The notes: generated by a model not told the origin, from the sequence alone. 64,000 bases of DNA from Candidatus Geothermincolia bacterium (GCA_038326775.1 JBBQKJ010000001.1:71510-135509), one strand, 5' to 3'. Positions 41,003-53,777 are shown, counted from the first letter of the stretch. Translations and numbers: made by a program.

Positions 41003-42148
41003 GTGGCAAGCGTAAAAGTAGGAAGCGCCATGGAGCAGGTCATCAAGCAGTCGGAGGTCGTGGAGAACGACTTTGTCAAGAAGTGGAAAGAGGGCGGCGG
41101 CAAGGTGCTGGGGTACGCCTGCGTCACCACTCCGCCCGAGATAATCGACGCGGCGGGCATCCTGCCCTACCGCCTCAGGGCGCTCGGCAACCCCAACACG
41201 GAGATAGCCGACGCGCACCTTGCGCGATTCAACTGCAGCTTCTGCCGCTCCTGCCTGCAGCTCGGCCTGGACGGTACCTACGCGTTCCTGGACGGGTCTA
41301 TCGAGACCAACGGGTGCGACCACCTGCGGGGGATGTTCGAGAACTGGGAGTATGTCCAGCCGTCGGAGTTCTTTCACTACGTCAAGGTGCCGCACCAGGT
41401 CAATGAGGACGCGATGGTGTACTACATCGAGGAGCTCAGGCTCTTCAAGTCCGCCATCGAAGAGCACTTCGGGGTCAAGATAACCGACGAGGCGATGAAG
41501 GGCGCGATAGAGCGCCAGGAGACGATAAGGGACAAGCTGCGCGAGGTGTACGAGATGCGGATGGGCCGGAAGCCGGCGTTCACCGGCACGGAGGCACTCT
41601 CCATATTCCTGCTCGCCTCCGCGGTGCCTTACGACGACTTTATCAGGCTGGCCGAAAGCGCCATCGAGGAGCGCAGGGGAACGGGCGTGTCCGGCTACCG
41701 CGCGCGCCTGATGCTCTGCGGCGCCGCAACCGACGAGCTCGAACTCATCAACGCCATCGAGGACGTTGGCGGACTGGTCGTCACCGACGGGCTGTGCTAC
41801 GGGGCCAGGGCGTTCTGGAGCCCGGTCGACACGACCAGGGACCCGATAGAGGCGCTCGCCGACGTTTACCTCAAGGACCTGCTATGCCCCAGGATGTACG
41901 AGGACTATCCGCGGCGGCGGGATTTTGTCCTGGACGCCGTGAAGAAGTACGACGTGGACGGCGTGATGGTCATGCATAACAAGTTCTGCGACGTGCACGG
42001 CGTCGATAACGTGCAGCTCAGGCTAGATCTGGAGAAGCGCAGCATCCCCGTGCTGCAGCTCGAGAAGGAGTACGGCTCGACAGCCGACATAGGCCGCATC
42101 AGGACCAGGGTTCAGGCTTTCCTGGAGAGGATTGGTGATCAGTCATGA
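41003..42148 (+). CDS. HAD/BCR family subunit, BcrC/HgdB-like, 381 aa. An ATG at 41030 with an AGGAAG RBS is an alternative start.
   Basis: K.LGYACVTTPPEIIDAAGILPYRL and conserved Cys (CSFCRSC, NGCDHL, ...FCDVHG) typical of the beta-type dehydratase/reductase subunits. Confidence 0.7.
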   Translation: MASVKVGSAMEQVIKQSEVVENDFVKKWKEGGGKVLGYACVTTPPEIIDAAGILPYRLRALGNPNTEIADAHLARFNCSFCRSCLQLGLDGTYAFLDGSIETNGCDHLRGMFENWEYVQPSEFFHYVKVPHQVNEDAMVYYIEELRLFKSAIEEHFGVKITDEAMKGAIERQETIRDKLREVYEMRMGRKPAFTGTEALSIFLLASAVPYDDFIRLAESAIEERRGTGVSGYRARLMLCGAATDELELINAIEDVGGLVVTDGLCYGARAFWSPVDTTRDPIEALADVYLKDLLCPRMYEDYPRRRDFVLDAVKKYDVDGVMVMHNKFCDVHGVDNVQLRLDLEKRSIPVLQLEKEYGSTADIGRIRTRVQAFLERIGDQS

Positions 42149-43641
42149 ACGCTGTCACCGCTACCGCAACCCAATCGTACACCTCGGGGGGTAAGGGGCC
42201 CCAGGATTTGAAGCTCGGCCTGTTCGATCGCGTGTCCGGCCTTTTCGAGATTATCGGAAAGCTTCCAGACGTGATGAGCGACGAGGAGGTCGACGGCCTT
42301 ATGGCCGTGCTGGCTGAGGACACGCGCAAGTCGTTGAGCGCAATGCTGATACCACGCGCCCGGGAGGGCAGCATGGCGTTCATGAAGATGCTTGCCAGGT
42401 GGCTCGAGGACGCCAGGAACGCCCCGCTGGAGGGAAAGAAATCCATCCTGATTCCCTTCTGCTTTCCCCCGGAGATCATTCACTGTTTCGAAAACTCCTT
42501 TCCATTAACAAGTGAGGTGCTCTCCTCGCTGGGGGTGATAGCGCTCGAGGGACAGGGCGAGCGGTACTACGACATGGCTCTCGGCCTCGGACTGCCCGAC
42601 CACATCTGCTCGGCCAACGCCGTGGAGGTGGGGTCCATGCTGGGCAGCGACGACTTTCAGCCGCAGGCGATAGTCAGCGCCGCGGTCGGCTCCTGCGATA
42701 TCAACTCCAAGACCCACGAGCTGGTATCCAACTACTTCGGCATCCCCCTGTTCATACTGGAGAAGCCTGTGGATGGCTCCGAGCGTGGCCGCGCGCAGTA
42801 TCAGAAGAACTTCGACAGGCTGGTCCGCGAGCTCGAGGAGTACCTCGGGGAGGAGCTTACGGATGACATGCTGCGGCGGACCTGCGAGAAGGTCAACAAG
42901 GCAAACAGGCTGATGGCAGAGCTGTGGGACCTGCACAAGGCGGTTCCAGACCCGGTGCCCAACCTGTTCTCTCTCTACTCATACGCGGCCAGGTTTGCCA
43001 TGTGGGGCACGGACCTGGCCATCGAGAGTATGAGGACCCTTGTCGACGTTTCCAAAAGGCGCTTGAAGGAGGGGGCTTACCCTGCCGACAGCGAGGTCGC
43101 CCGCTGCTTCCTGACCTATACCAGCTACTACTTCGACCTGGCGGGGCTTTTCAACTGGATGGAGGAACGGGGTTACACTTACCTCGGTGACGGGCTCGGC
43201 CTGCTATTCCCAGGTGTCATAGACACCTCTTCGCGCGAAAGCATGCTCTGGGGGATGGCCGAGGAGGCATGGAACATGCCGATGACCAGGCAGGTGGGCG
43301 GAGAATCGATGTCAATGTGCTGGCTGGAGGACGCGCTCTACGCGGCAAAGGATCTCGGCGCCGACTGCGCGATCTACTCAGGCCACCACTCCTGCAAGCA
43401 GACCTGGAGTGTGGCCTCGATCCTGCGCACGGAGTTGATGAAGCGGGCGGGCGTGCCCATGCTCGCCCTGCAGGGCGACTCCTGGCTCAAGCGGACCACT
43501 CCCATAACAGTCATACAGCAGGAGATAGACGAGTTCATCAAGAACGTGGTATTGCCGAAGAGCGGGGCCAAGAGGAAGTTGCGCAGGCGGGGGGTCGGGG
43601 CCGCGGGCACCGCGAGCACAGCGGAAACCACGAGCGCTTGA
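42145..43641 (+). CDS. HAD/BCR family subunit, HgdA/BcrB-like, 498 aa. Start overlaps the previous stop (ATGA).
   Basis: Paralogous to 20090..21538 and 43655..45058 (SILIPFCFPPEIIHCFEN, GLPDHICSANAVE, SGHHSCKQTWSV). Confidence 0.75.
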   Translation: MNAVTATATQSYTSGGKGPQDLKLGLFDRVSGLFEIIGKLPDVMSDEEVDGLMAVLAEDTRKSLSAMLIPRAREGSMAFMKMLARWLEDARNAPLEGKKSILIPFCFPPEIIHCFENSFPLTSEVLSSLGVIALEGQGERYYDMALGLGLPDHICSANAVEVGSMLGSDDFQPQAIVSAAVGSCDINSKTHELVSNYFGIPLFILEKPVDGSERGRAQYQKNFDRLVRELEEYLGEELTDDMLRRTCEKVNKANRLMAELWDLHKAVPDPVPNLFSLYSYAARFAMWGTDLAIESMRTLVDVSKRRLKEGAYPADSEVARCFLTYTSYYFDLAGLFNWMEERGYTYLGDGLGLLFPGVIDTSSRESMLWGMAEEAWNMPMTRQVGGESMSMCWLEDALYAAKDLGADCAIYSGHHSCKQTWSVASILRTELMKRAGVPMLALQGDSWLKRTTPITVIQQEIDEFIKNVVLPKSGAKRKLRRRGVGAAGTASTAETTSA

Positions 43642-43654
43642 GAGAGGAGAAGCA

Positions 43655-45058
43655 ATGCCTGTGATAGCCAGCACCATCCCCGGCTCGGGACTCTTCGACA
43701 GGGTCCAGCAGCTCTTCGAGGTTGTTCTCAAGGTACCCGACGAGATGAGCCACGAGGAGGCCCGGGGTATCATCGACGTGATGCCCCCGGACGTTGCCGC
43801 CACGCTCGAGGCTGTCCTTGAAGACCGGATCCGGCGCGCCGGGATCATCTTCCTGAAGATGGTCGGGCAGTGGCTGAAGAACGCCAGGGAGGCTAAGGCC
43901 GCGGGAAAGAAGGTCATCCTCGTGCCGTTCAACTTCGTTCCCGAGCTCGTACACGCGTTCGAGAACGCGGTGCCGCTGACCAGCGAGATACTCTCCACGC
44001 TGGCGGGCAGCGCCACCGAGGGCAAGGGGCACCGCTACTGGGATTACGCGATGGGCCTCGGCATCCCCGACCACCTGTGCTCCGCGAGCGCCATCGAGCT
44101 GGGCTCGATGCTGACCGGCGTGGACTTCGAGGCGGATGCCATCATCTCCTGCACCGCCGGCGCATGCGACGCCAACTCGAAGATCCACGAGTTCGTCGCC
44201 AACTACATGGGCATCCCGCAGTTCGTGGTGGAGAAGCCGGTGGACGACACAGAGCGCGGCATAGAGCAGTACAAGAAGAACTTCTTCAGAATGGTCGAGC
44301 AGCTCGAGGAGTTCGTGGGGGAGACCATCAAGGAAGAGCGCCTGCGCGAGGTCGTCGATTACTGCAACCGCTCCGCGGAGCTACACTACCAGCTCTGGGA
44401 GCTCAAGAAGAACGCCCCCTGCCCGGTGCCGAACATATACAACATGTTCATCTACGCCGCCCGCTTCACGCAGTGGGGCAGGCCCGAGTCGCTGAGGACG
44501 ATGGAAGTCATGGTGGAGGAGGCTAAAAAGCGGCTGGAGGCGGGCGATTACCCGGCGGAAAAGGAGCTCGCGCGCGTCGGATGGCTGTACACGAGCTACT
44601 ACATAGACTTCGCCGGGCTCTTCAACTGGATGGAGGAGCAGGGATACACGCACCTCTTCGACGTGCTCGACCTCTTCTTCCCGGAACCGATCTCGACGGA
44701 GAGCAGGCAGACGATGCTCGAGGGCATCTGCGAGGCGGCCAGGACGTTTCCCATGACCCGCCAGATGGGTGCCGAGTCGATGTCGGTGGCGTGGATAGAT
44801 GACGCCATCAGCATGGCGAAGATGCTGGACGCGAACTGCGCCATCTACTGCGGTCACCACGCCTGCAAGCAGACCTGGAGCGTCATCTCCATAGTCCAGA
44901 AGGAGCTGATGGACCGCATAGGGGCGCCGGTGCTGTCCCTTCAGGGCGACGCCTGGCTGAGCGGAATGACCCCGGTGTCGACCCTGCAGGAAAACATCGA
45001 CGAGTTCATGCGTAACGTTGTGGTCAAGAAGCGAAAGGTCAAAACACGAAAAAGGTAA
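43655..45058 (+). CDS. HAD/BCR family subunit, HgdA/BcrB-like, 467 aa.
   Basis: Paralogous blocks (VILVPFNFVPELVHAFEN, GIPDHLCSASAIE, CGHHACKQTWSV). Confidence 0.75.
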   Translation: MPVIASTIPGSGLFDRVQQLFEVVLKVPDEMSHEEARGIIDVMPPDVAATLEAVLEDRIRRAGIIFLKMVGQWLKNAREAKAAGKKVILVPFNFVPELVHAFENAVPLTSEILSTLAGSATEGKGHRYWDYAMGLGIPDHLCSASAIELGSMLTGVDFEADAIISCTAGACDANSKIHEFVANYMGIPQFVVEKPVDDTERGIEQYKKNFFRMVEQLEEFVGETIKEERLREVVDYCNRSAELHYQLWELKKNAPCPVPNIYNMFIYAARFTQWGRPESLRTMEVMVEEAKKRLEAGDYPAEKELARVGWLYTSYYIDFAGLFNWMEEQGYTHLFDVLDLFFPEPISTESRQTMLEGICEAARTFPMTRQMGAESMSVAWIDDAISMAKMLDANCAIYCGHHACKQTWSVISIVQKELMDRIGAPVLSLQGDAWLSGMTPVSTLQENIDEFMRNVVVKKRKVKTRKR

Positions 45059-45059
45059 A

Positions 45060-45090
45060 GTGGGGTCAAGCCACTTTCTTGTTCTCAGCA
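45060..45090. repeat. Short partial copy of the palindromic repeat tail (GTGGGGTCAAGCCACTTTCTTG, similar to GGGGTCAGGTCACTTTCTTGC).
   Basis: About 19/21 identity by eye. Intergenic between the HAD/BCR subunit and the activator genes. Confidence 0.35.
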
Positions 45091-45141
45091 CTACCGCGAC
45101 AGCGACCGAAGCGCTATGACCAAAAAAGAAAGGGAGATTGA

Positions 45142-45960
45142 ATGTCGTTTGCTGGAATCGACGTGGGCTCGCTGACCGCGCAGGCGGTCCTGATAGAGGA
45201 CGGCCGCACCCCGTTACTCAAGACGATAGGCGTAAAGCTCCTCTCGAAAAGCATAAGGGTGAAACCCAACCCTTTGGATTCTGCCCGCACCGTGATGGGG
45301 CAACTCCTCGATGAGCATAGCCTGTCGTGGGGTGACATCACCTACTGCGTGAGCACCGGGTACGGACGCGACAAGGTCCAGGGCGAAGGGCTGGCCCAGG
45401 AGAACGTGAGCGAGATATCCTGCCACGGGATAGGTGCTTTCACCATCGCCCCGCAGGTCCGCACCATAATCGACATCGGTGGCCAGGACGCCAAGGTCAT
45501 CCGCGTCAACGAGAGCGGAGACCTGGTCAACTTCGTCATGAACGACAAGTGCGCCGCGGGCACCGGCCGCTTCCTGGAGGTCATGAGCCGCACCCTGGGC
45601 GTCTCGTTCGAAGACCTGGGCGGCATCGCGCTCAGGGCGCGGGGGAAGATCGAGCTCAGCTCGAGGTGCAGCATCTTCGCCGAGACCGAAGTCCTGCACT
45701 ATCTTCAGAAGGGTTTCGACAAGGCCGACCTGGCGGCCGGGACGTGCAAGTCCATGGCGGACAGGGTGATGGCCCTGGTGCGACGCGTGGGCTGGGAGAA
45801 AGAGGTCATGATGACAGGTGGCGTGGCCAAGAACGTCGCGGTCAAGGCGGAGCTGGAGAGGGTGCTCAACCTGAGGATGTTCGTCCCGCACCTCGACCCG
45901 CAACTGATGGGCGCTTTCGGCGCCGCCGTGCTGGCGCAGAAGGCAGGTGCTGCCCTGTGA
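45142..45960 (+). CDS. CoA-substrate-specific enzyme activase (HgdC/BcrAD/BadFG-type ASKHA ATPase), 272 aa.
   Basis: N-terminal ...GIDVGS...AVL... ; DKCAAGTGRFLE and the two-Cys [4Fe-4S]-bridging pattern of HgdC-like activators. Confidence 0.8.
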   Translation: MSFAGIDVGSLTAQAVLIEDGRTPLLKTIGVKLLSKSIRVKPNPLDSARTVMGQLLDEHSLSWGDITYCVSTGYGRDKVQGEGLAQENVSEISCHGIGAFTIAPQVRTIIDIGGQDAKVIRVNESGDLVNFVMNDKCAAGTGRFLEVMSRTLGVSFEDLGGIALRARGKIELSSRCSIFAETEVLHYLQKGFDKADLAAGTCKSMADRVMALVRRVGWEKEVMMTGGVAKNVAVKAELERVLNLRMFVPHLDPQLMGAFGAAVLAQKAGAAL

Positions 45961-45965
45961 AGACA

Positions 45966-46739
45966 ATGGGGATAGACATCGGCAACCTGCTCTCGAAGGT
46001 GGTCATCCTTGATGGGGACAAGTTGGTCGCGAGCGGAATAATGGACACCACCGGGAACGTGGCGAGCGAGATCGACATGCTGGTGAGCTCCGTCCTGCTG
46101 GACGCGGGCTTCGGGCTCGAAGGGCTGGATGCGCGCGCCGCCACCGGTGGCGGGGCCGAACTGCTGAGGGGCCTGGACTTCACCGAGGACGAGGTGACCT
46201 GCGTGGCGGCGGCGGGCGCTTACCTCCTGCCCGAGATAAACATGATAGTGCACGTCGGCGGCCAGAGCATCGCCTCGATTCTCATCAACGAGGACGGCGA
46301 CGTGGTCAACTTCATGCGCAACGACAAGTGCGCCTCGGGGTCCGGGCGCTTCCTGGAGGTCATGAGCCACGCTATTGGCGTGGGCATCGACGACATCGAT
46401 GGCGTGGTGGAGGGGGCCGAAAAGCCGGTTTCCATAAGCAGCCAGTGTGGTGTTTTCGCGGAGAGCGAGGTCATCACTCATGTTAACGACGGCGAGAAGC
46501 CGGCGGATATTGTCGCCGGTCTGTGCGACTCGGTGGCGAGCATCGTGTCCGCGCAGGCCCGCAAATTCACCGAGGGGGACAAGTATACCCTTACCGGTGG
46601 TGTAGCGAGGATAGACGCAGTCAGGGGACGTATAACGCAGAAGATGAACGGGACGTTCTACGAGTTTCCCCATGACCCGAGGCTGGCGGCCGCCGTCGGC
46701 GCGGCCCTGCTCGCCGGCATGGAAGAAGAAGAGGAGTAA
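45966..46739 (+). CDS. Second CoA-substrate-specific enzyme activase (HgdC-type ATPase), 257 aa. The 396-aa track ORF is an out-of-context upstream extension.
   Basis: MGIDIGNLLSKVVIL..., DKCASGSGRFLE. ATG at 45966 immediately after the stop of the first activase. Confidence 0.8.
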   Translation: MGIDIGNLLSKVVILDGDKLVASGIMDTTGNVASEIDMLVSSVLLDAGFGLEGLDARAATGGGAELLRGLDFTEDEVTCVAAAGAYLLPEINMIVHVGGQSIASILINEDGDVVNFMRNDKCASGSGRFLEVMSHAIGVGIDDIDGVVEGAEKPVSISSQCGVFAESEVITHVNDGEKPADIVAGLCDSVASIVSAQARKFTEGDKYTLTGGVARIDAVRGRITQKMNGTFYEFPHDPRLAAAVGAALLAGMEEEEE

Positions 46740-46785
46740 GAGACCGCTTTTGGGAGCTTTCAGCCCCACGAAGCATTGAGACGAC

Positions 46786-47502
46786 ATGGCCTTGTTCGAT
46801 GAACAGCTTGGCGAAGTAAGACGGATTCTCGCCGACTGGCGGGAAGGAGCCGGAGCGCGCGAGTTCAGCGCCGGGGAGCGGGCACCCTGGCCCGAAGGGC
46901 AGAGCCTCGTGCTGGAGGAGGACACAGCCCTCGAGCTCGGCAACCCCTCTGTCGCGTCCCTGTCTCTTCTGCTCTGGAGCGAGGGAGGCGACGTCGAGGA
47001 CGGGCGTATTACTCTCGTGGGGCCCGACGTACCTGAGGCGAAAGAGCGCAACGTGCCTTTCGCGCAGGTTGTCATAGCGGGTGGCTCCTTCGCAAGCGAG
47101 TACGACTCCTACCGCGACGCTCGGGACGCCGTTTACGATACCAGGCTCCATGGCTTCTCGGTGCGAACGATGCCCAGCAGGCAGAGCATCTGGTGCAGGG
47201 TGGCGCGCGTTGCCAGGGAGGAGGGTTTTTCCCTGGTGGATCTGGGGGCGGCCTTTATCGAGGCGCTCAAGAGCCTGGACGAGGTCTCGGCCGCACAGGT
47301 CGTCTTCGTGACCGCGAGCGTCGAGGACGTGAAGAAGCTGTCGGGCGCCGCGGCGGGCGCCCAGAGGATAGTCGACGCTATGATGAAGATGTACCAGGAG
47401 GAGAACTTCGACTGTGAGACCTGCGAGTACCAGGAGGTCTGCGACACCGTGATGGACCTGAAGATGATAAGGAAGAAGCTGACCGAAGGAAAGGTGCCCT
47501 GA
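46786..47502 (+). CDS. Hypothetical protein, 238 aa, with C-terminal Cys cluster FDCETCEYQEVCD. Stop overlaps the start of the CooC-like gene.
   Basis: ORF in operon position. No family recognised. Confidence 0.45.
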   Translation: MALFDEQLGEVRRILADWREGAGAREFSAGERAPWPEGQSLVLEEDTALELGNPSVASLSLLLWSEGGDVEDGRITLVGPDVPEAKERNVPFAQVVIAGGSFASEYDSYRDARDAVYDTRLHGFSVRTMPSRQSIWCRVARVAREEGFSLVDLGAAFIEALKSLDEVSAAQVVFVTASVEDVKKLSGAAAGAQRIVDAMMKMYQEENFDCETCEYQEVCDTVMDLKMIRKKLTEGKVP

Positions 47503-48245
47503 TGATCCTGTCGGTGTGCGGTAAGGGAGGCGTCGGCAAGACCACCGTTTCCGCGGTTGCGGCGCAGGCTCTCTCGGCCAGGGATGGAGTGCGCGCGCTA
47601 ATCGTCGACGCCGACCCGGCGGGCGGGCTTGGCATGGCGCTCGGGCTCACCCCTCGAAAGACGCTCAACGATGTTCGAAAGGAGATAATCGAGGAGGTCA
47701 AAGCTGGAGGGCGCGACGAGAAGGACCTGGCCGTCTCGCTCGATTACCTGCTCGCCGAAGCGCTTACGGAAAAGGGCAACCTGGCGTTCCTGTCCATCGG
47801 GCGGCCCGAGGACGTGGGCTGCTACTGCAAGGTGAACGTCATCCTCAAGGACGCAATCGAAGGCCTGGCGGGCCGCTTCGACGCGACCGTCATAGACGCC
47901 GAAGCGGGTATCGAGCAGGTCAACCGCAAGGTGATGAGCCCGGTCGATTACGTTTTGCTCGTGTCGGACACCTCGGCCAAGGCGGTCAGGGTCGCGGAGA
48001 CCATAAAGGGCGTCGCGGACAGCATGATCGGCGGCGAGGATGCCGGCCTGCTGGTCAACAGGGCGCGCGAAGGGCGCGAGGCCGAGAAGATTCGCATGGG
48101 GACCTCGCTCGAGGTGCTGGGCTGGATACCGGAGGACGACACCATCCGCCGGTTCGACGGCGAGGAGATATCCTTCCTCGAGCTGCCGGAGTGCCCCGCC
48201 CGCGAGGCCATCACCGCCGCTCTCGAGAAGACCGGCCTGCTATAA
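47502..48245 (+). CDS. CooC/AcsF-family P-loop ATPase (MinD/ParA superfamily), a putative metallocentre (Ni) insertion/maturation ATPase, 247 aa.
   Basis: Deviant Walker A GKGGVGKTT at the N-terminus plus the CooC-type CxC motif (EDVGCYCKVN) at the expected position. Confidence 0.7.
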   Translation: MILSVCGKGGVGKTTVSAVAAQALSARDGVRALIVDADPAGGLGMALGLTPRKTLNDVRKEIIEEVKAGGRDEKDLAVSLDYLLAEALTEKGNLAFLSIGRPEDVGCYCKVNVILKDAIEGLAGRFDATVIDAEAGIEQVNRKVMSPVDYVLLVSDTSAKAVRVAETIKGVADSMIGGEDAGLLVNRAREGREAEKIRMGTSLEVLGWIPEDDTIRRFDGEEISFLELPECPAREAITAALEKTGLL

Positions 48246-48383
48246 TTCATCTTGGGGTCAGACACCCTGACATGAATTTTCAGCGGCATCCGGATGTCTC
48301 GGATACAAATTCATGTCAGGGTACCTGACCCCAGGGTGAGAATGCACAAAAGTGACCTGACCCCAATGTTGCATTATGGATGA
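48246..48383. repeat. Palindromic intergenic repeat element, copy B (about 138 bp). Its tail reaches into the annotated start of the metallophosphoesterase gene.
   Basis: Alignment with copy A: ATTCAT..TGGGGTCAGACACC(T/C)TGACATGAATTTT ... inverted arm ... AAAGTGACCTGACCCCAATGTT(A/G)CAT...ATAGCG. Confidence 0.6.
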
Positions 48384-49488
48384 AGATAGCGAGAAGAATG
48401 GAAGGAAGCGCGCGGGCGGTGGGTCGCGCCGACACATCGCGGTGGAGGCACGCCGCCGTATCGAGCTCATCGCCTCTCGCATTCCGGGGGCCCGGGCGCT
48501 TGTAAAACACCAGTTGCCCGAAGCGGTGGCCGACCGCCTGGTTGTTGTTTCCGACATGCATTTCGGGAACGATTACGGAGCGCTGGGCACCGCTGATAAC
48601 AGGATGAGGCTCACAAATGGCCTGAGGGAGCTCGGGCAAATCGACGAGCTGGTCCTGCTCGGCGATATCTTCGACTTCTGGACCGCTACCCTCGACAACG
48701 CGCTGGAGCAGTCAAGGGAGCTCATTTCTTCGCTGTTCAAGCTTGAGAACGTCGGGCGCATAATATATATACCGGGAAACCACGACCACCACGCGGTACG
48801 CCTTTACCACAACGAGCAGGTAAGCAAGAGGCTGCGCTCGGGCGAGCTGGAGGCGCCACCTCTCACCATCCCGCTGGTCGCCGACTGCCCGGTGCTGGAG
48901 CCTTTGAGGCCGGAAGGGGCGACGGTACCCTCGTTCATGGCCTATCCGTGGCACCACGTGGCGGTGCGCGGCAAGACGGCGCTTCTAACCCACGGCCACC
49001 TTCTGGGGTTTTTCGAGCGCTCGCTCTGGCGCCCGAAGCGAAGGTTCCTGAACGCCTTTCTACTGAAGAAAAACCCGAGTGTGGGCCTCGACGACATGGA
49101 GGCGTTCCTGTCTCCCTATTACGAGATGTTGTCACTGAGCACAGCGGTGCCGGGTGTCGTAGACGGCAGGTACCGTTTCTATCGAATAGTGAGCCGGACG
49201 GCGAAGATGCTCGGTTTCGAGCGGGAGTACAGGGTGTCGTCGTTCCGCGATACCAGTATCGAGGAAAACGCTGTCGAGATAGAGGCCCTTCTCGACCACT
49301 TCTACGAGGTGAAGCCAGACTACTTCATCTACGGGCACACACACAGGGCGGCCACCCTGGACCTTCCCCTGTCCGGCACCACCGCGGTTAACACCGGCGC
49401 CTGGTTCAACAACCCCGCCGACGCCGAGAATCACTCCAGGTACACAATCGTCGAGGTCACGGACAAGCCCCGCATCATCGACCTGTAG
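48376..49488 (+). CDS. Calcineurin-like metallophosphoesterase, 370 aa. The true start is possibly downstream, because the first codons lie inside the repeat.
   Basis: Motifs VVSDMHFG, GDIFDFW, GNHDHH, GHLL...GHTH characteristic of metallophosphoesterases. Confidence 0.7.
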   Translation: MDEDSEKNGRKRAGGGSRRHIAVEARRRIELIASRIPGARALVKHQLPEAVADRLVVVSDMHFGNDYGALGTADNRMRLTNGLRELGQIDELVLLGDIFDFWTATLDNALEQSRELISSLFKLENVGRIIYIPGNHDHHAVRLYHNEQVSKRLRSGELEAPPLTIPLVADCPVLEPLRPEGATVPSFMAYPWHHVAVRGKTALLTHGHLLGFFERSLWRPKRRFLNAFLLKKNPSVGLDDMEAFLSPYYEMLSLSTAVPGVVDGRYRFYRIVSRTAKMLGFEREYRVSSFRDTSIEENAVEIEALLDHFYEVKPDYFIYGHTHRAATLDLPLSGTTAVNTGAWFNNPADAENHSRYTIVEVTDKPRIIDL

Positions 49489-49585
49489 ACGGTCGGGGTT
49501 GCGTCGCTCACCCCCGCTTTGAACTTGTTAAACGCGAGCCCGATGTATAATAGCGGCACGACTGACCAAAGTGATGGGAGGAGTC

Positions 49586-52500
49586 ATGAAGAGGCTGCCG
49601 GGAAAAGCTCTTTCTTCGACGATAATCTTCTTGATAGCGGCAGTCCTTATGGCGTTCGCGTTAGCGCCGGCCGGTGCGCTGGCGGCCGACGGATATGTCT
49701 GGAGCTGGCAGAACCCGCTGCCGCAAGGGAACGACCTTTTCAGCATCTCTGCCGCGGACACGGCGCACGTCTGGGCCGTCGGGGCCGGCGGCACCATCCT
49801 CTTCAACAACGGGGATTACTGGGTCCGGCAGACCGTCGGCACCACTGGTACTCTCAACGACGTGCTGGCGGTGGACCCGACACATGTCTGGGCCGTCGGG
49901 GCAGGCGGCACCATACTTTTCTACAACGGCACATCCTGGACCGCGCAGGCCGGCGGCACCATCAACAGCCTTAACGGGCTCGCCGCTGTCGACGCGACCC
50001 ATGTCTGGGCTGTGGGTTCCGGCGGCACGGTCCTTTTCTTCAACGGCTCCAGCTGGACCGCGCAGGTGACCGGCACGACCAACGCCCTGATCTCCGCCTC
50101 CGCCGTGGACGCCACGCACGCCTGGGCGGTGGGGTCCGGTGGAACTGTCATCTTCTACAACGGTACGACGTGGACCGGCCAGGCCGGCGGCGTCAGCGAC
50201 GGCTGGATAAACGGGGTCTCGGCTGTAGACGCCACGCACGCCTGGGCGGTCGGCTACCGGCAGGTCAGCCACACTCTTTCCTACTTCATCCTTTTCTTCA
50301 ACGGCTCGTCCTGGGTGACGCAGGCCACCGGCGAGGACTGCTGGCTGACAGACGTTTCCGCGGTCGACGCCTCGAATGCCTGGGCGGTGGGTTCGGACGG
50401 GAAAGCGCTCTTTTTCAAGGGAACGACCTGGGCCGAACAGATGACCGGCTCCTCGGAGACGCTTCACAGTGTCCTGGCCCTCAATGCGACCCACGTCTGG
50501 GCCGCGGGTAACGCCGGCGAGATCCTCTCCTACGACGGCGCCTGGAACCGACAGACAGCCGGCGAGAGTTTCGACATCCTCGGGATGTCCGCGTTCGATC
50601 AGAACCAGGCCTGGGCGGTCGGGGCCAGTGGAGATATCCTCCACTACAACGGCTCGGCCTGGACGGCCCAGCCGAGCGGCGCAAGCGGACCGTACTTTGA
50701 CGTATTCGCGCTCGACTCCGAACACGTATGGGCCGTAGGTGAGGGGGGCAAGGTCGCTTTCTGGAACGGGGCCGCCTGGGCCCTGCAGAGCAGCGGGACT
50801 TCAAGCACGCTCTTCGCCGTGACCGCCGCGGACGAGAACCACGTATGGGCTGTCGGCGCGTCGGGCACGGTGCGCTTCAGCAACGGGTCTGCATGGAGCG
50901 GGCAGACGTCGGGCACCACCCAGTGGCTCAACGGCGTTTCCGCCGCGGACTCGAAGCACGTCTGGGCGGTCGGCAGCGGAAAGACCCTCCTCTATTACAA
51001 CGGCGCTTCCTGGAAGGGCACGGATACAGGCGCCTTCAACGGGCTCAACTCGGTTTCTGCGCTGGACGCGACCCATGCCTGGGCAGTGGGCCCCGGCGGC
51101 TTCATCATGTTCATAAACGGGCCCGGCACCTGGAGCCAGCAGGCCAGCGGCACCACGGCCGACCTTTTCGCCGTGGCGGCGGTGTCCGCCGGCCGTGTAT
51201 GGGCGGTGGGCGATGGAGGGGTCGCCCGTTACTATGACGGGAACACCTGGACCGCGCAGAACACCGGCTCGGTGAACAACCTCGGAGGTTTGACCGCACC
51301 GGACGGCGGCCATGCGTGGGTGGGTGGTGACGATGGCAATATTCTGCTGGGCCAGGTCGTCCTACCCCCGACCAGCCGCACCTGGGGGACCGGCTCCATA
51401 GCCGCCGCGGCGCCGGCGACCGACTGGTTCCTGGCCGAGGGCTCCACGGGCCCGGGCTTTGAGACATGGGTCCTGGTTCAGAATCCCGGCGACGTGACGG
51501 CCACGGTCGAGCTCGACTACATGACCTCCACGGGCCAGGTCGACGGACCGACGCTGAACATACCGGCCAGGTCGCGCTCAACGGTCAACGTCGCCGCCAC
51601 GGTGCCCAACTCCTGGGACGTCTCAACGAAGGTGGGCAGCAACAAACCGGTCATCGGGGAGAGGTCCATGTATGGAGGGGACCGGACCTGGGGCACCGAC
51701 TCCATCGGCGCATCGGCTCCCGCGAAGACCTGGTACCTTGCCGAGGGCTCGACCGGGACCGGCTTCGAGACCTGGGTCCTGGTGCAGAACCCCAACGATA
51801 CTTCGGCGAACGTAGAGATAACCTACATGACAGGCTCCGGCCCGGTGAGCGGGCCCAGGGTCAACCTCCCCGCCAGGACGCGGAGGACTTTCGACGTTGC
51901 CGATACCGTGCCCGGCAAATTCGACGTGTCGACCATGGTCAAGGCCAACAAGCCGGTGGTGGTCGAGCGCTCGATGTACGGCAGCGGCAGGACCTGGGGC
52001 ACCGACTCGATCGGCGCGGCCGCCCCTTCGGGGTTGTGGTACCTCGCCGAGGGCTCGACGGGCCCGGGCTTTGAGACCTGGATACTGGTACAGAACCCGA
52101 ACGGGCTTCCGGCCGAGGTTACCCTGACCTACATGACTCCCGCGGGCGCCGTGGCGCAAAAGGTCGATAAGGTGCCCGCGAACGCGCGCAAATCGTTTGA
52201 CGTCGGGCGCGTCGTGCCGGGCGCCTGGGAAGTCTCCACCAAGGTCGAGGCCAACCGTCCGGTGGTGGCAGAGCGGGCGATGTACGGCAACAACCGGGTC
52301 TGGGCGCACGACTCCATCGGCGCCTCGGCTCCCGCGAAGACCTGGTACCTCGCCGAGGGCTCGACCGGGACCGGCTTCGAGACCTGGATACTGGTGCAGA
52401 ACCCGGGCGGCGACCCGGCTGAAGTCAGGGTCGACTACCTGACCACCGCGGGCGAGGTAAAAGGCCCGGCCGTGATGGTCCCCGCACGCTCACGCATGAA

Positions 52501-52606
52501 CTTCAACGCGGGAGAGACCGTACCCGGGACCTGGGATGTCTCGACCAGGGTCGAGAGCGACAAACCGGTCATCGCCGAGCGGGCGATGTACGGCAGCCCC
52601 AAATGA
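49586..52606 (+). CDS. Large secreted repeat protein, 1006 aa: signal peptide, about 13 beta-propeller-type blades of ~47 aa (HVWAVG.GGTILF.NG..W..Q..GTT..LN.VSAVD.T, BNR/Ycf48-like), then four tandem 102-aa repeats (RTWGTDSIGA.AP...WYLAEGSTG.GFETW.LVQNP....A.V...YMT..G.V.GP....PARSR.....A.TVP..WDVST.V..NKPV..ER.MYG).
   Basis: GGGAGGAG RBS before the ATG at 49586. Signal peptide ...AFALAPAGALAADG. Repeats counted by eye in the translation; near-identical DNA stretches occur between C-terminal repeat units. Confidence 0.75.
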   Translation: MKRLPGKALSSTIIFLIAAVLMAFALAPAGALAADGYVWSWQNPLPQGNDLFSISAADTAHVWAVGAGGTILFNNGDYWVRQTVGTTGTLNDVLAVDPTHVWAVGAGGTILFYNGTSWTAQAGGTINSLNGLAAVDATHVWAVGSGGTVLFFNGSSWTAQVTGTTNALISASAVDATHAWAVGSGGTVIFYNGTTWTGQAGGVSDGWINGVSAVDATHAWAVGYRQVSHTLSYFILFFNGSSWVTQATGEDCWLTDVSAVDASNAWAVGSDGKALFFKGTTWAEQMTGSSETLHSVLALNATHVWAAGNAGEILSYDGAWNRQTAGESFDILGMSAFDQNQAWAVGASGDILHYNGSAWTAQPSGASGPYFDVFALDSEHVWAVGEGGKVAFWNGAAWALQSSGTSSTLFAVTAADENHVWAVGASGTVRFSNGSAWSGQTSGTTQWLNGVSAADSKHVWAVGSGKTLLYYNGASWKGTDTGAFNGLNSVSALDATHAWAVGPGGFIMFINGPGTWSQQASGTTADLFAVAAVSAGRVWAVGDGGVARYYDGNTWTAQNTGSVNNLGGLTAPDGGHAWVGGDDGNILLGQVVLPPTSRTWGTGSIAAAAPATDWFLAEGSTGPGFETWVLVQNPGDVTATVELDYMTSTGQVDGPTLNIPARSRSTVNVAATVPNSWDVSTKVGSNKPVIGERSMYGGDRTWGTDSIGASAPAKTWYLAEGSTGTGFETWVLVQNPNDTSANVEITYMTGSGPVSGPRVNLPARTRRTFDVADTVPGKFDVSTMVKANKPVVVERSMYGSGRTWGTDSIGAAAPSGLWYLAEGSTGPGFETWILVQNPNGLPAEVTLTYMTPAGAVAQKVDKVPANARKSFDVGRVVPGAWEVSTKVEANRPVVAERAMYGNNRVWAHDSIGASAPAKTWYLAEGSTGTGFETWILVQNPGGDPAEVRVDYLTTAGEVKGPAVMVPARSRMNFNAGETVPGTWDVSTRVESDKPVIAERAMYGSPK

Positions 52607-52619
52607 CAGCCGGTCATAG

Positions 52620-53777
52620 GTGAGCGACGAGCGAGTATCACTGGCGAGGTGCGGTGGTTACCACCGGGAGCTTGTAAGAAAGAGCGTCGCCACGGTGCTC
52701 GAGTCGCTGGGCGGGGCAGGCAGCATAGCCGGGCCCGGACAGACCGTCTTTCTCAAGGTCAACGCGGCCGTGGCCGTCGCGCCCGAGACCGCCCGGGTGA
52801 CCCATCCCGAGGTCGTTCGGGCCGTCGCCGAGGAGTTCAGAAAGGTCACCGACAGGGTACTGATAGGCGACAGCCCCGGCGGCCCGTTCAACCCGGCGCT
52901 GCTCAAGAGGGTTTACGAGAAGAACGGCCTGGCCGAAGTCGCCCGACAGACCGGGGCCGAACTCGCGTTCGACACGCGCACGGTGGATGTCTCCCTGCCT
53001 GATGGCACGGCCATGAAGCGCTTGAAACTCTGCGCGGCAATGGTCGAGGCCGACCGACTTGTCTCCATCTCCAAGTTCAAGACCCACAGCTATCTGAACA
53101 TCACCGGACCCATCAAGAACCTCTACGGGGCGGTGCCGGGCACCACCAAGTTCTCTTACCACTCCCGGTTTGACAACGAGCGCGATTTTGCCGACCTCAT
53201 AGTGGACGTGCATCTTGCGGCCCGTCCCGCTTTCCACGTGGTGGACGCCGTCGACGTGATCGACGGCGACGGCTCCCGGCGTGGGGCCATAAGGAAGATG
53301 GGTGTCATCGCGGCGGGGGCGAACGCGTTCGCGTTGGAGTCGCTTCTTATGAAGCTGGTCGGCCTCGAGATGCGCGACAGCCTGGCCTTGAGGGCCGCGA
53401 TAGAGCGAGGCGTCTGCGGCGAGGGCACCGGTTGGTTCGAGGTGCTCGGCGACGTCGCCAGCGAGCCGTTATTGAGCGACTTCCGACTGCCCGCTGGGAG
53501 CGTTTTCAGCGAGCGAATACCCGCCCTGCTCGTCGAACGCCTCAGCCGGTGGCTCTCGGCGAGGCCCGTCCCCCTGCCCGGGGCATGCACCCTCTGCGGG
53601 ACGTGCGTGAAGGTCTGCCCGCGCCGCGCCGTGACACTTGGCGAGGACGCGGCCCTGGTGGACGCCGGGAAGTGCATCAGGTGCTTCTGCTGCTCGGAGC
53701 TGTGCGAGTACGGAGCGATCGACATACGGACGCCGGCGCTCCTGCGCGCTTTCCGCCGAAAAGTACATATTTTCTAA
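52620..53777 (+). CDS. DUF362-domain protein with C-terminal 2x[4Fe-4S] ferredoxin domain, 385 aa, GTG start.
   Basis: DUF362-like N-terminus (V.L..C..Y........V...L..LGG.......G..V.LKVN). C-terminal CTLCGTCVKVCP and CIRCFCCSELCEYGAI. Confidence 0.65.
   Translation: MSDERVSLARCGGYHRELVRKSVATVLESLGGAGSIAGPGQTVFLKVNAAVAVAPETARVTHPEVVRAVAEEFRKVTDRVLIGDSPGGPFNPALLKRVYEKNGLAEVARQTGAELAFDTRTVDVSLPDGTAMKRLKLCAAMVEADRLVSISKFKTHSYLNITGPIKNLYGAVPGTTKFSYHSRFDNERDFADLIVDVHLAARPAFHVVDAVDVIDGDGSRRGAIRKMGVIAAGANAFALESLLMKLVGLEMRDSLALRAAIERGVCGEGTGWFEVLGDVASEPLLSDFRLPAGSVFSERIPALLVERLSRWLSARPVPLPGACTLCGTCVKVCPRRAVTLGEDAALVDAGKCIRCFCCSELCEYGAIDIRTPALLRAFRRKVHIF

Follow-up and report, generated by a model that had tools for sequence, protein, structure and literature searches.

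The gene at positions 49586 to 52606 on the + strand of a 64,000-nucleotide stretch of DNA from a Candidatus Geothermincolia bacterium (GCA_038326775.1 JBBQKJ010000001.1:71510-135509; hereafter the window) codes for a secreted protein of 1006 amino acids (aa), in which a putative head of two seven-bladed beta-propellers is followed by four tandem copies of a DUF5719 module with the ASRT-like "ASRAH" fold. The four copies are ancient, and their number is fixed across the family. A linker element that occurs four times in each protein is circularly permuted in the clade to which this protein belongs. The explanation that we favor, and hold to be somewhat probable as a whole, is that the four modules form a single-chain pseudo-tetramer which retains the double propeller on an envelope glycan.

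The module was not recognized as a named domain in the initial annotation of the locus, which was made from the sequence alone, but a Pfam scan identified it as DUF5719 (PF18986; 79.3 bits, E 3.8e-22, gathering threshold 26.2), with three matched stretches of which the best covers aa 711-895. The precomputed annotation of an identical database protein, P0001, encoded on a single NCBI contig of 138,754 bp, likewise gives PF18986. The Pfam model of ASRT itself (PF07100) reached 22.0 bits, under its cut-off of 25, and two relatives exceed this threshold (P0196 with 35.2 bits and P0125 with 27.4 bits); an NCBIfam scan of the protein gave no match. Using hmmsearch, we compared a profile of 66 diverse modules (profile A1) with 177,635 PDB sequences. 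This retrieved Thermotoga TM1070 (1NC7, E 2.2e-6) and Anabaena ASRT (2IIA, 2.8e-5; 2II7, 3.7e-5), with no comparable match after these in the PDB set.

The "ASRAH" superfamily was defined by de Souza, Iyer and Aravind in 2009 and has two hallmark residues: strand 1 begins with a conserved Trp, and strand 2 ends in an Asn that is nearly invariant (PMC2739507). Both can be found in the module, as W[YF]LAEG (Trp) and, further on, LVQNP (Asn). The Asn is invariant across the 66 modules of profile A1, is 98-100% conserved at each of the four module positions, and aligns with that of TM1070, 2IIA and 2II7, while the Trp aligns with TM1070 and 2IIA. The ASRT signature SHEshChhN is absent, its His being replaced by Glu and its Cys by Leu or Val to give FETW[IV]LVQN; such replacements fit the description of the superfamily, according to which each ASRAH family has its own pocket residues (PMC2739507).

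An AlphaFold2 model of aa 585-1006 (422 residues, 89 aligned sequences) reached a predicted local distance difference test score (pLDDT) of 95.8 and a predicted template modelling score (pTM) of 0.93, and shows eight-stranded beta-sandwiches of the TM1070/ASRT type. Among the 50 Foldseek matches listed, only TM1070/ASRT structures had a probability of 1.00, all others being at or below 0.75. TM1070 (1NC7) was matched with a TMt of 0.75 and a root-mean-square deviation (rmsd) of 2.3 Å over 110 columns, and ASRT with a TMt of up to 0.82 (2IIA, rmsd 1.6 Å) at 25-31% identity. The module is therefore DUF5719, a named domain with the ASRT-like fold. The initial annotation had allowed that the unit might prove to be a well-known domain with an annotated function; the domain does have a name and solved homologues, but its function, sugar binding, is a prediction. 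DUF5719 is not mentioned in the literature searched, where "ASRAH" occurs solely in the 2009 paper (PMC2739507).

The four modules, each of which is matched by the family profile, lie as follows:

51359..51664, + strand: ASRAH/DUF5719 module 1, aa 592-693 (family profile E 2e-36)
51665..51970, + strand: ASRAH/DUF5719 module 2, aa 694-795 (family profile E 4e-39)
51971..52276, + strand: ASRAH/DUF5719 module 3, aa 796-897 (family profile E 5e-35)
52277..52582, + strand: ASRAH/DUF5719 module 4, aa 898-999 (family profile E 5e-38)

There are exactly four of them, each of 102 aa (306 nucleotides, nt), in tandem over aa 592-999, just as had been read from their strict core. The same reading took them to be near-identical, with exact repeats of 40-50 nt that implied recent amplification, and here the measurements point the other way. 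Any two modules are identical at 54-63% of amino-acid and 62-70% of nucleotide positions. Throughout the coding sequence, direct repeats that are exact reach 36 nt at most (at 51740 and 52352, in units 2 and 4), exact matches between all other unit pairs are at most 23 nt, and Tandem Repeats Finder did not call the 306-nt period in the coding sequence. The third codon position is only 49-59% identical between modules, close to saturation, as compared to 64-78% for positions 1 and 2, and this difference points to an ancient duplication under purifying selection. As judged from these sequence comparisons, the four modules are old and diverged copies, and neither a recent amplification nor an unstable array.

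The number of modules was then compared across the family. Among the 120 best homologues, 109 bear the module, and 107 of these have exactly four copies. The rule of four holds whether the head consists of 7 or 14 blades, IPT/TIG, FG-GAP or NHL/YVTN domains or an S8 peptidase, and in a few homologues the block is N-terminal. In a genome sample of 76 loci, retrieved with a single-module query (the window's own genome is absent from the species representatives returned), 63 of 80 complete open reading frames (ORFs) have four modules, the maximum in this sample. Frameshift-split genes (3+1) and contigs with identical adjacent units, the latter suggestive of assembly collapse, are among the exceptions examined; others, among them L063 with three modules and L048 with one, have no such explanation. 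An exhaustive search with the profile, across 1.84 billion representative proteins, returned 9,778 clusters (50% identity) at E up to 0.001. Of the best 144 new proteins from this search, 132 carry four modules and 9 carry eight, that is, two tetrads, the remaining three being two truncated proteins and one of composition 1+4; intact proteins of 6 or 7 modules were absent from this sample. The two blocks of the eight-module proteins (P0123-P0125, P0127-P0131 and P0134) are either adjacent or lie as far as about 1,100 residues apart, with IPT/TIG repeats in between.

Each of the four positions has a conservation pattern of its own, and in 97-99 of 107 cases the best match of a unit in another protein is the unit at the same position. 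All full-length orthologues, which share 58-71% identity and come from NCBI, ENA, JGI and Logan assemblies, have four modules and a length of 1003-1007 aa. Because these assemblies are independent, an assembly artefact in the window is very unlikely, and the potential for copy-number variation suggested earlier finds no counterpart among the orthologues. From the fixed count and the unit-to-unit orthology it follows that the fourfold duplication is older than the family and that the block behaves like a single domain; in the model, too, the four modules are held in one confident and rigid arrangement.

Three contigs of metagenome-assembled genomes (MAGs; L016, L054 and L061) contain only 2-3 modules, and there the neighboring units are identical or nearly identical in protein sequence, unlike the diverged units of the window. 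These cases look like short-read collapse of a four-module block, or like recent gene conversion, so that one of these two processes evidently affects other members of the family.

Each module is linked to the next by a conserved element of 24 residues with the consensus AMYWDNGRWTGGHDSIGVTSPATT ("ER-AMYWxxRxxGHDSIG"), in which, according to the model, the long last strand is prolonged and then followed by a tight turn and a short strand. There are exactly four such elements per protein. In 66 of 88 proteins the fourth copy is found behind module 4, and there is none ahead of module 1. Another 16, including the window protein and its closest relatives, have linker positions 8-24 before module 1 and only positions 1-5 (AMYG) after module 4. 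The linker profile had no clear match at either end in the remaining 6, and a full copy at both block ends was found in none of the 88. The two halves in the window protein are:

51374..51424, + strand: displaced linker before module 1, about aa 597-613, SRTWGTGSIAAAAPATD (15.6 bits over linker-profile positions 8-24)
52583..52603, + strand: C-terminal stub AMYGSPK, the other half of the split fourth linker (7.1 bits, linker-profile positions 1-5)

The hairpin of the fourth linker is thus cut at its turn, with AMYG at the extreme C-terminus and RTWGTGSI ahead of module 1, where the leader forms a strand in the model (model residues 16-21; the 10-residue blocks concerned have mean pLDDT values of 91 and 98). 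Since the split linker is a circular permutation, which makes sense only if the two ends meet, the N- and C-termini of the block are probably adjacent; they would then jointly rebuild the fourth junction, much like the velcro closure of a propeller. The pTM of the model, the module counts of 4 or 8 and the permuted fourth linker are indirect support for a putative pseudo-tetramer, which may be either ring-like or a dimer of dimers.

Ahead of the block lies the propeller region:

49724..50563, + strand: blades 1-7, inferred first seven-bladed propeller, aa 47-326 (39-aa period and model of aa 36-590)
50564..51355, + strand: blades 8-14, inferred second seven-bladed propeller, aa 327-590 (39-aa period and model)

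The blades regularly bear the motif HVWAVGxGGTILFxNGxxW, and its anchor, [HNQR][AV]W[AV][VAG]G, occurs 14 times between aa 61 and 576, at spacings of 39, 39, 39, 40, 46, 39, 38, 39, 39, 39, 39, 40 and 39 aa. The period is accordingly about 39 aa (117 nt in DNA) and not the 47 aa first read from the sequence, and an estimate of about 13 blades, enough for two propellers, was right as to the propellers and one short in the count. The AlphaFold2 model of aa 36-590 (43 aligned sequences) has a mean pLDDT of 95.5 and a pTM of 0.88. The structures that it matches best in the PDB, each at a probability of 1.00, consist of two seven-bladed propellers: the designed-looking 2YMU with 14 repeats, AIP1 (1NR0, 1PGU), GH74 xyloglucanases and UTP tandem WD proteins, with TMq values of 0.54-0.76 across some 600-700 columns and 9-15% identity. 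We therefore suggest a division of the blades into 7+7. By Pfam the propeller region itself passes no threshold, save for a trivial match of 17 residues to DUF2510, and PF14870 (PSII_BNR/Ycf48, gathering threshold 27 bits) gave no match with the whole protein at E up to 1 or with its halves at E up to 0.01. Propellers of relatives do match PF14870 (59.7 bits in P0062 and 40.3 bits in P0067). Because the model matches double propellers and the relatives match PSII_BNR/Ycf48, the region is most probably a double seven-bladed Ycf48/BNR-like propeller that would serve as a binding head. It shares with the Ycf48/BNR-like and double propellers (PF14870; 2YMU, AIP1 1NR0, GH74) the 14 blades and a degenerate, Asp-box-like "NGxxW" motif, and differs from Ycf48 (PSII_BNR) in scoring below the Pfam threshold and in having neither a link to photosynthesis nor a catalytic signature.

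Blade 5 (window 50195-50332, aa 204-249) carries a 7-residue insertion in the YRQVSHTLSYF region, giving 46 aa instead of 39, and is modelled with slightly less confidence (10-residue block means down to 83). In a phmmer comparison of the propeller region with PDB sequences, the sole significant match, and a weak one, was Toxoplasma TLAP2 (9YA3_H, E 9.7e-6), covering window 50603-50896 (aa 340-437); it probably reflects a common blade motif and is uninformative.

The start of the protein was defined as follows:

49586..52606, + strand: coding sequence, 1006 aa plus stop (100% identical to database protein P0001, also 1006 aa)
49576..49583, + strand: Shine-Dalgarno-like GGGAGGAG, 2 nt 5' of the ATG at 49586 (from direct reading of the sequence)
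49586..49684, + strand: predicted Sec signal peptide, aa 1-33 (read by eye from the translation)

We preferred the ATG at 49586 over an in-frame GTG at 49571 because of the Shine-Dalgarno-like GGGAGGAG. Read by eye, the n-, h- and c-regions of a Sec signal peptide can all be discerned at the N-terminus, with MKRLPGK followed by a hydrophobic stretch and an AXA site (ALA|AD). The initial annotation, which also took the protein to be secreted, was right in this. The translation of this segment, MKRLPGKALSSTIIFLIAAVLMAFALAPAGALAADG (aa 1-33), has an AXA-type site and no cysteine, and hence no lipobox. The coding sequence has a G+C content of 66%, as compared to 62% for the window, and a promoter and terminator scan around the gene gave nothing above chance.

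The named relatives of the protein come from MAGs of Candidatus Geothermincolia, Anoxymicrobiaceae, Solincola and "Actinomycetota bacterium". In them the block is joined to Ycf48-like propellers, IPT/TIG, FG-GAP, NHL/YVTN, S8 peptidase or papain-like peptidase heads, and single genomes supply 6-8 loci among the top 80 genome hits. These paralogues lie in neighborhoods unrelated to one another and are at times paired. One such pair, in locus L085 (10001-18080), consists of two block-bearing genes 8 nt apart on one strand, coding for an S8 peptidase with TIG (P0067) and for a 1104-aa product with a DUF5719 match (probably P0022, a propeller protein of equal length), which may be co-expressed surface proteins.

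In the window protein we found neither a membrane anchor nor a sortase or lipid anchor. Since the block occurs on many unrelated heads and in several genes per genome, and since there is no other anchor, we propose that it retains the protein on an envelope glycan. Under this explanation the host would be an uncultured anaerobic actinobacterium related to Geothermincolia/Anoxymicrobiaceae, from which the product would be exported through the Sec pathway. The 14 N-terminal blades would fold into the two Ycf48/BNR-like propellers of the binding head, and the C-terminal 415 residues, with their four ancient and position-specific beta-sandwich copies, would come together as one rigid pseudo-tetramer, the equivalent within a single chain of the ASRT/TM1070 homotetramer. 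The fourth linker copy, split between the block ends in this clade, would close the assembly. The block would carry polar pocket residues specific to its family and, like its counterparts in the superfamily, would most likely bind carbohydrate; if this is a glycan of the cell envelope, the protein would be held at the cell surface. The surface or binding role suggested before any homology was known is plausible.

In function, the block would then be an analogue of a surface-layer homology (SLH) trimer or a LysM array. SLH trimers are non-covalent wall-binding blocks in which a few tandem repeats form one pseudo-symmetric unit, present on many secreted proteins per genome, and their binding to wall polymer has been demonstrated. 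The likeness is one of function only: the fold and sequence of SLH trimers are unrelated to the ASRAH block, whose wall binding is suggested by analogy.

Closer parallels lie within the superfamily. ASRT and TM1070 are tetramers, the secreted ASRAH domains come as tetrads (amidase-linked) or dyads, and sugar binding was predicted from the pocket and gene contexts (PMC2739507). With ASRT/TM1070 (PDB 2II7-2IIA, 1NC7; PF07100) the module shares the eight-stranded beta-sandwich, a significant profile match and the hallmark Trp and Asn, and the solved proteins are tetrameric where here four copies occupy one chain. However, those proteins are intracellular, single-domain, about 125 aa long and homotetrameric, and carry the SHEshChhN ligand signature, whereas the window protein is secreted, has four fused and diverged copies with FETW[IV]LVQN, and is sub-threshold for PF07100. 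The tetrads of Chloroflexi amidases (family 2 of PMC2739507), compared here by description only, are likewise secreted and place four tandem ASRAH domains beside another extracellular domain; they were proposed to act as a hetero-tetramer-like unit binding cell-wall sugar (PMC2739507). Their head is an N-acetylmuramoyl-L-alanine amidase, whereas the protein studied here, from Actinomycetota MAGs, has a double beta-propeller, and no amidase domain was found in it by Pfam. The actinomycete ASRAH lipoprotein (family 3 of PMC2739507), which we assume to be Pfam DUF5719 (PF18986), is also extracellular and from Actinomycetota, and the window protein passes the DUF5719 threshold. It differs in its absolutely conserved lipobox cysteine, absent from the window protein; in its neighborhood of WhiB, glycosyltransferase and inactive zincin-like peptidase genes, absent here and at the orthologues; and in being described as a dyad with flanking extensions, whereas here four clear copies follow a 590-aa propeller region.

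Several points weigh against retention on an envelope glycan. The case for an anchor is one from architecture, and those for end adjacency and for the symmetry of the assembly come from the pTM and the permutation argument. The propeller head has no significant Pfam family match of its own. In the modules, Glu and Leu/Val stand where ASRT-type proteins have the His and Cys proposed to contact the ligand. The sole bound molecule in the superfamily is ethanediol in TM1070, sugar binding being a prediction (PMC2739507), and no experimental test of that prediction was found in the literature searched. ASRT has also been reported as a DNA-binding protein (PMC8660804), so that the function of the superfamily appears unsettled. 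Finally, stand-alone secreted tetrads exist (P0159, P0191 and P0236) and the actinomycete DUF5719 proteins are lipoproteins (PMC2739507); the block can therefore be a functional part of a protein and not its anchor.

If the block does bind sugar, its ligand could be an environmental substrate, with the block as a carbohydrate-binding module and the propeller as a GH74-type glycosidase or a lectin. The predicted sugar binding of the superfamily (PMC2739507) would suit such a role, the double propeller superposes on GH74 xyloglucanases with a TMq of 0.63-0.69, and there are weak sub-threshold Pfam matches to Agarase_CBM. However, the GH74 matches (12-13% identity) are not better than those to AIP1 and the UTP tandem WD proteins (TMq up to 0.76), and no glycoside hydrolase family was matched by sequence in Pfam or the PDB, GH74 included; the structural resemblance is generic, and a GH74-like enzyme was rejected as the leading interpretation on these grounds. 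Nor do the heads of more than 100 relatives (TIG, FG-GAP, NHL, peptidases, propellers) include a glycoside hydrolase family, and no sugar uptake or catabolism was seen in the neighboring genes. We consider polysaccharide capture unlikely.

Alternatively, the block might bind no glycan and serve for self-association, as the base of an S-layer lattice or as a protein docking platform. The rigidity of the block in the model (pTM 0.93), the homo-oligomeric state of the solved homologues, and the many paralogues with the same block, some proteins having two, are all compatible with this. However, the invariant polar residues (E, R, ER and N) at all four positions fit four small-ligand sites equally well, and the amidase-linked tetrads in the literature point to cell-wall binding (PMC2739507). 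We give a lattice role a rather low probability. A recently amplified adhesin array, labile in copy number or mis-assembled, for which the collapsed-looking contigs L016, L054 and L061 might be cited, is very improbable and is refuted at this locus by the 62-70% DNA identity of the units with no exact match beyond 36 nt, the near-saturated third codon positions, the failure of Tandem Repeats Finder to see an array, the four units of orthologues in five independent assemblies, and the orthology of unit positions across the family.

The genes around the locus code for HGD-D, BcrAD, CdhC-like, CooC-like, metallophosphoesterase, DUF362-Fer4 and thiamine pyrophosphate (TPP) enzyme proteins. The upstream cluster (window 42145-49488) comprises two HGD-D genes, two BcrAD/BadFG ATPases, a 238-aa CdhC-like protein, a CooC/ParA-type ATPase and a metallophosphoesterase, an unusual case of a benzoyl-CoA-reductase/dehydratase-like set beside a CdhC fragment and a CooC-like maturation ATPase. 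The orthologues retain it (L001, L003 and L005), as synteny of close genomes. A functional link to the upstream metallophosphoesterase was set aside, since it has no signal peptide and the synteny spans the whole metabolic cluster in close genomes only. Within the cluster, a 396-aa ORF at 45549-46739 (+ strand) overlaps the preceding gene (45142-45960) and matches BcrAD_BadFG only from residue 141; its true start is probably near 45966, giving about 258 aa as in L001.

Downstream, a gene for a DUF362 protein with 2x[4Fe-4S] (window 52620-53777, + strand) begins 13 nt past the stop of the propeller gene and is probably co-transcribed with it in this window. The gene has no counterpart at the orthologous loci, where its place is taken by an unrelated ferredoxin-domain gene on the opposite strand; we therefore rejected a functional link, and the adjacency is coincidental, as had been supposed. 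The closest genome record, that of L001 and L009 (DYIU01000004.1), is labelled "Acidimicrobium ferrooxidans isolate FI88_64_18". This label looks doubtful, since every search gave MAGs of the Geothermincolia/Anoxymicrobiaceae type as relatives of the record and its genes suggest an anaerobe.

The combination of a double propeller with an ASRAH tetrad is new within the literature searched, the family itself being known and uncharacterized, and the quantized copy number and the permuted linker are, as far as we found, new observations. For annotation, these results imply that this locus is no hypervariable repeat, and that a module count below four in a relative from a short-read MAG probably reflects a frameshift or a collapsed assembly. 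A block of four modules whose ends apparently meet, carried under many surface-protein heads within one class, makes for a testable structural hypothesis, and aa 585-1006 offer a clean construct for binding studies. The 9,778 clusters recovered show that the DUF5719/ASRT-like superfamily is large. A bolder and more speculative possibility, which we put forward tentatively and would not yet bet on, is that the ASRAH tetrad is a general envelope-retention device of the deep-branching uncultured class Geothermincolia/Anoxymicrobiaceae: one chain would form the pseudo-tetramer and offer as many as four glycan sites, and a split beta-hairpin, circularly permuted in one clade, would close it like velcro. 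If so, it would replace or complement sortase/LPXTG or SLH anchoring in the display of propellers, adhesin-like repeats and proteases, and would provide the first concrete mechanism for the widespread DUF5719 family.

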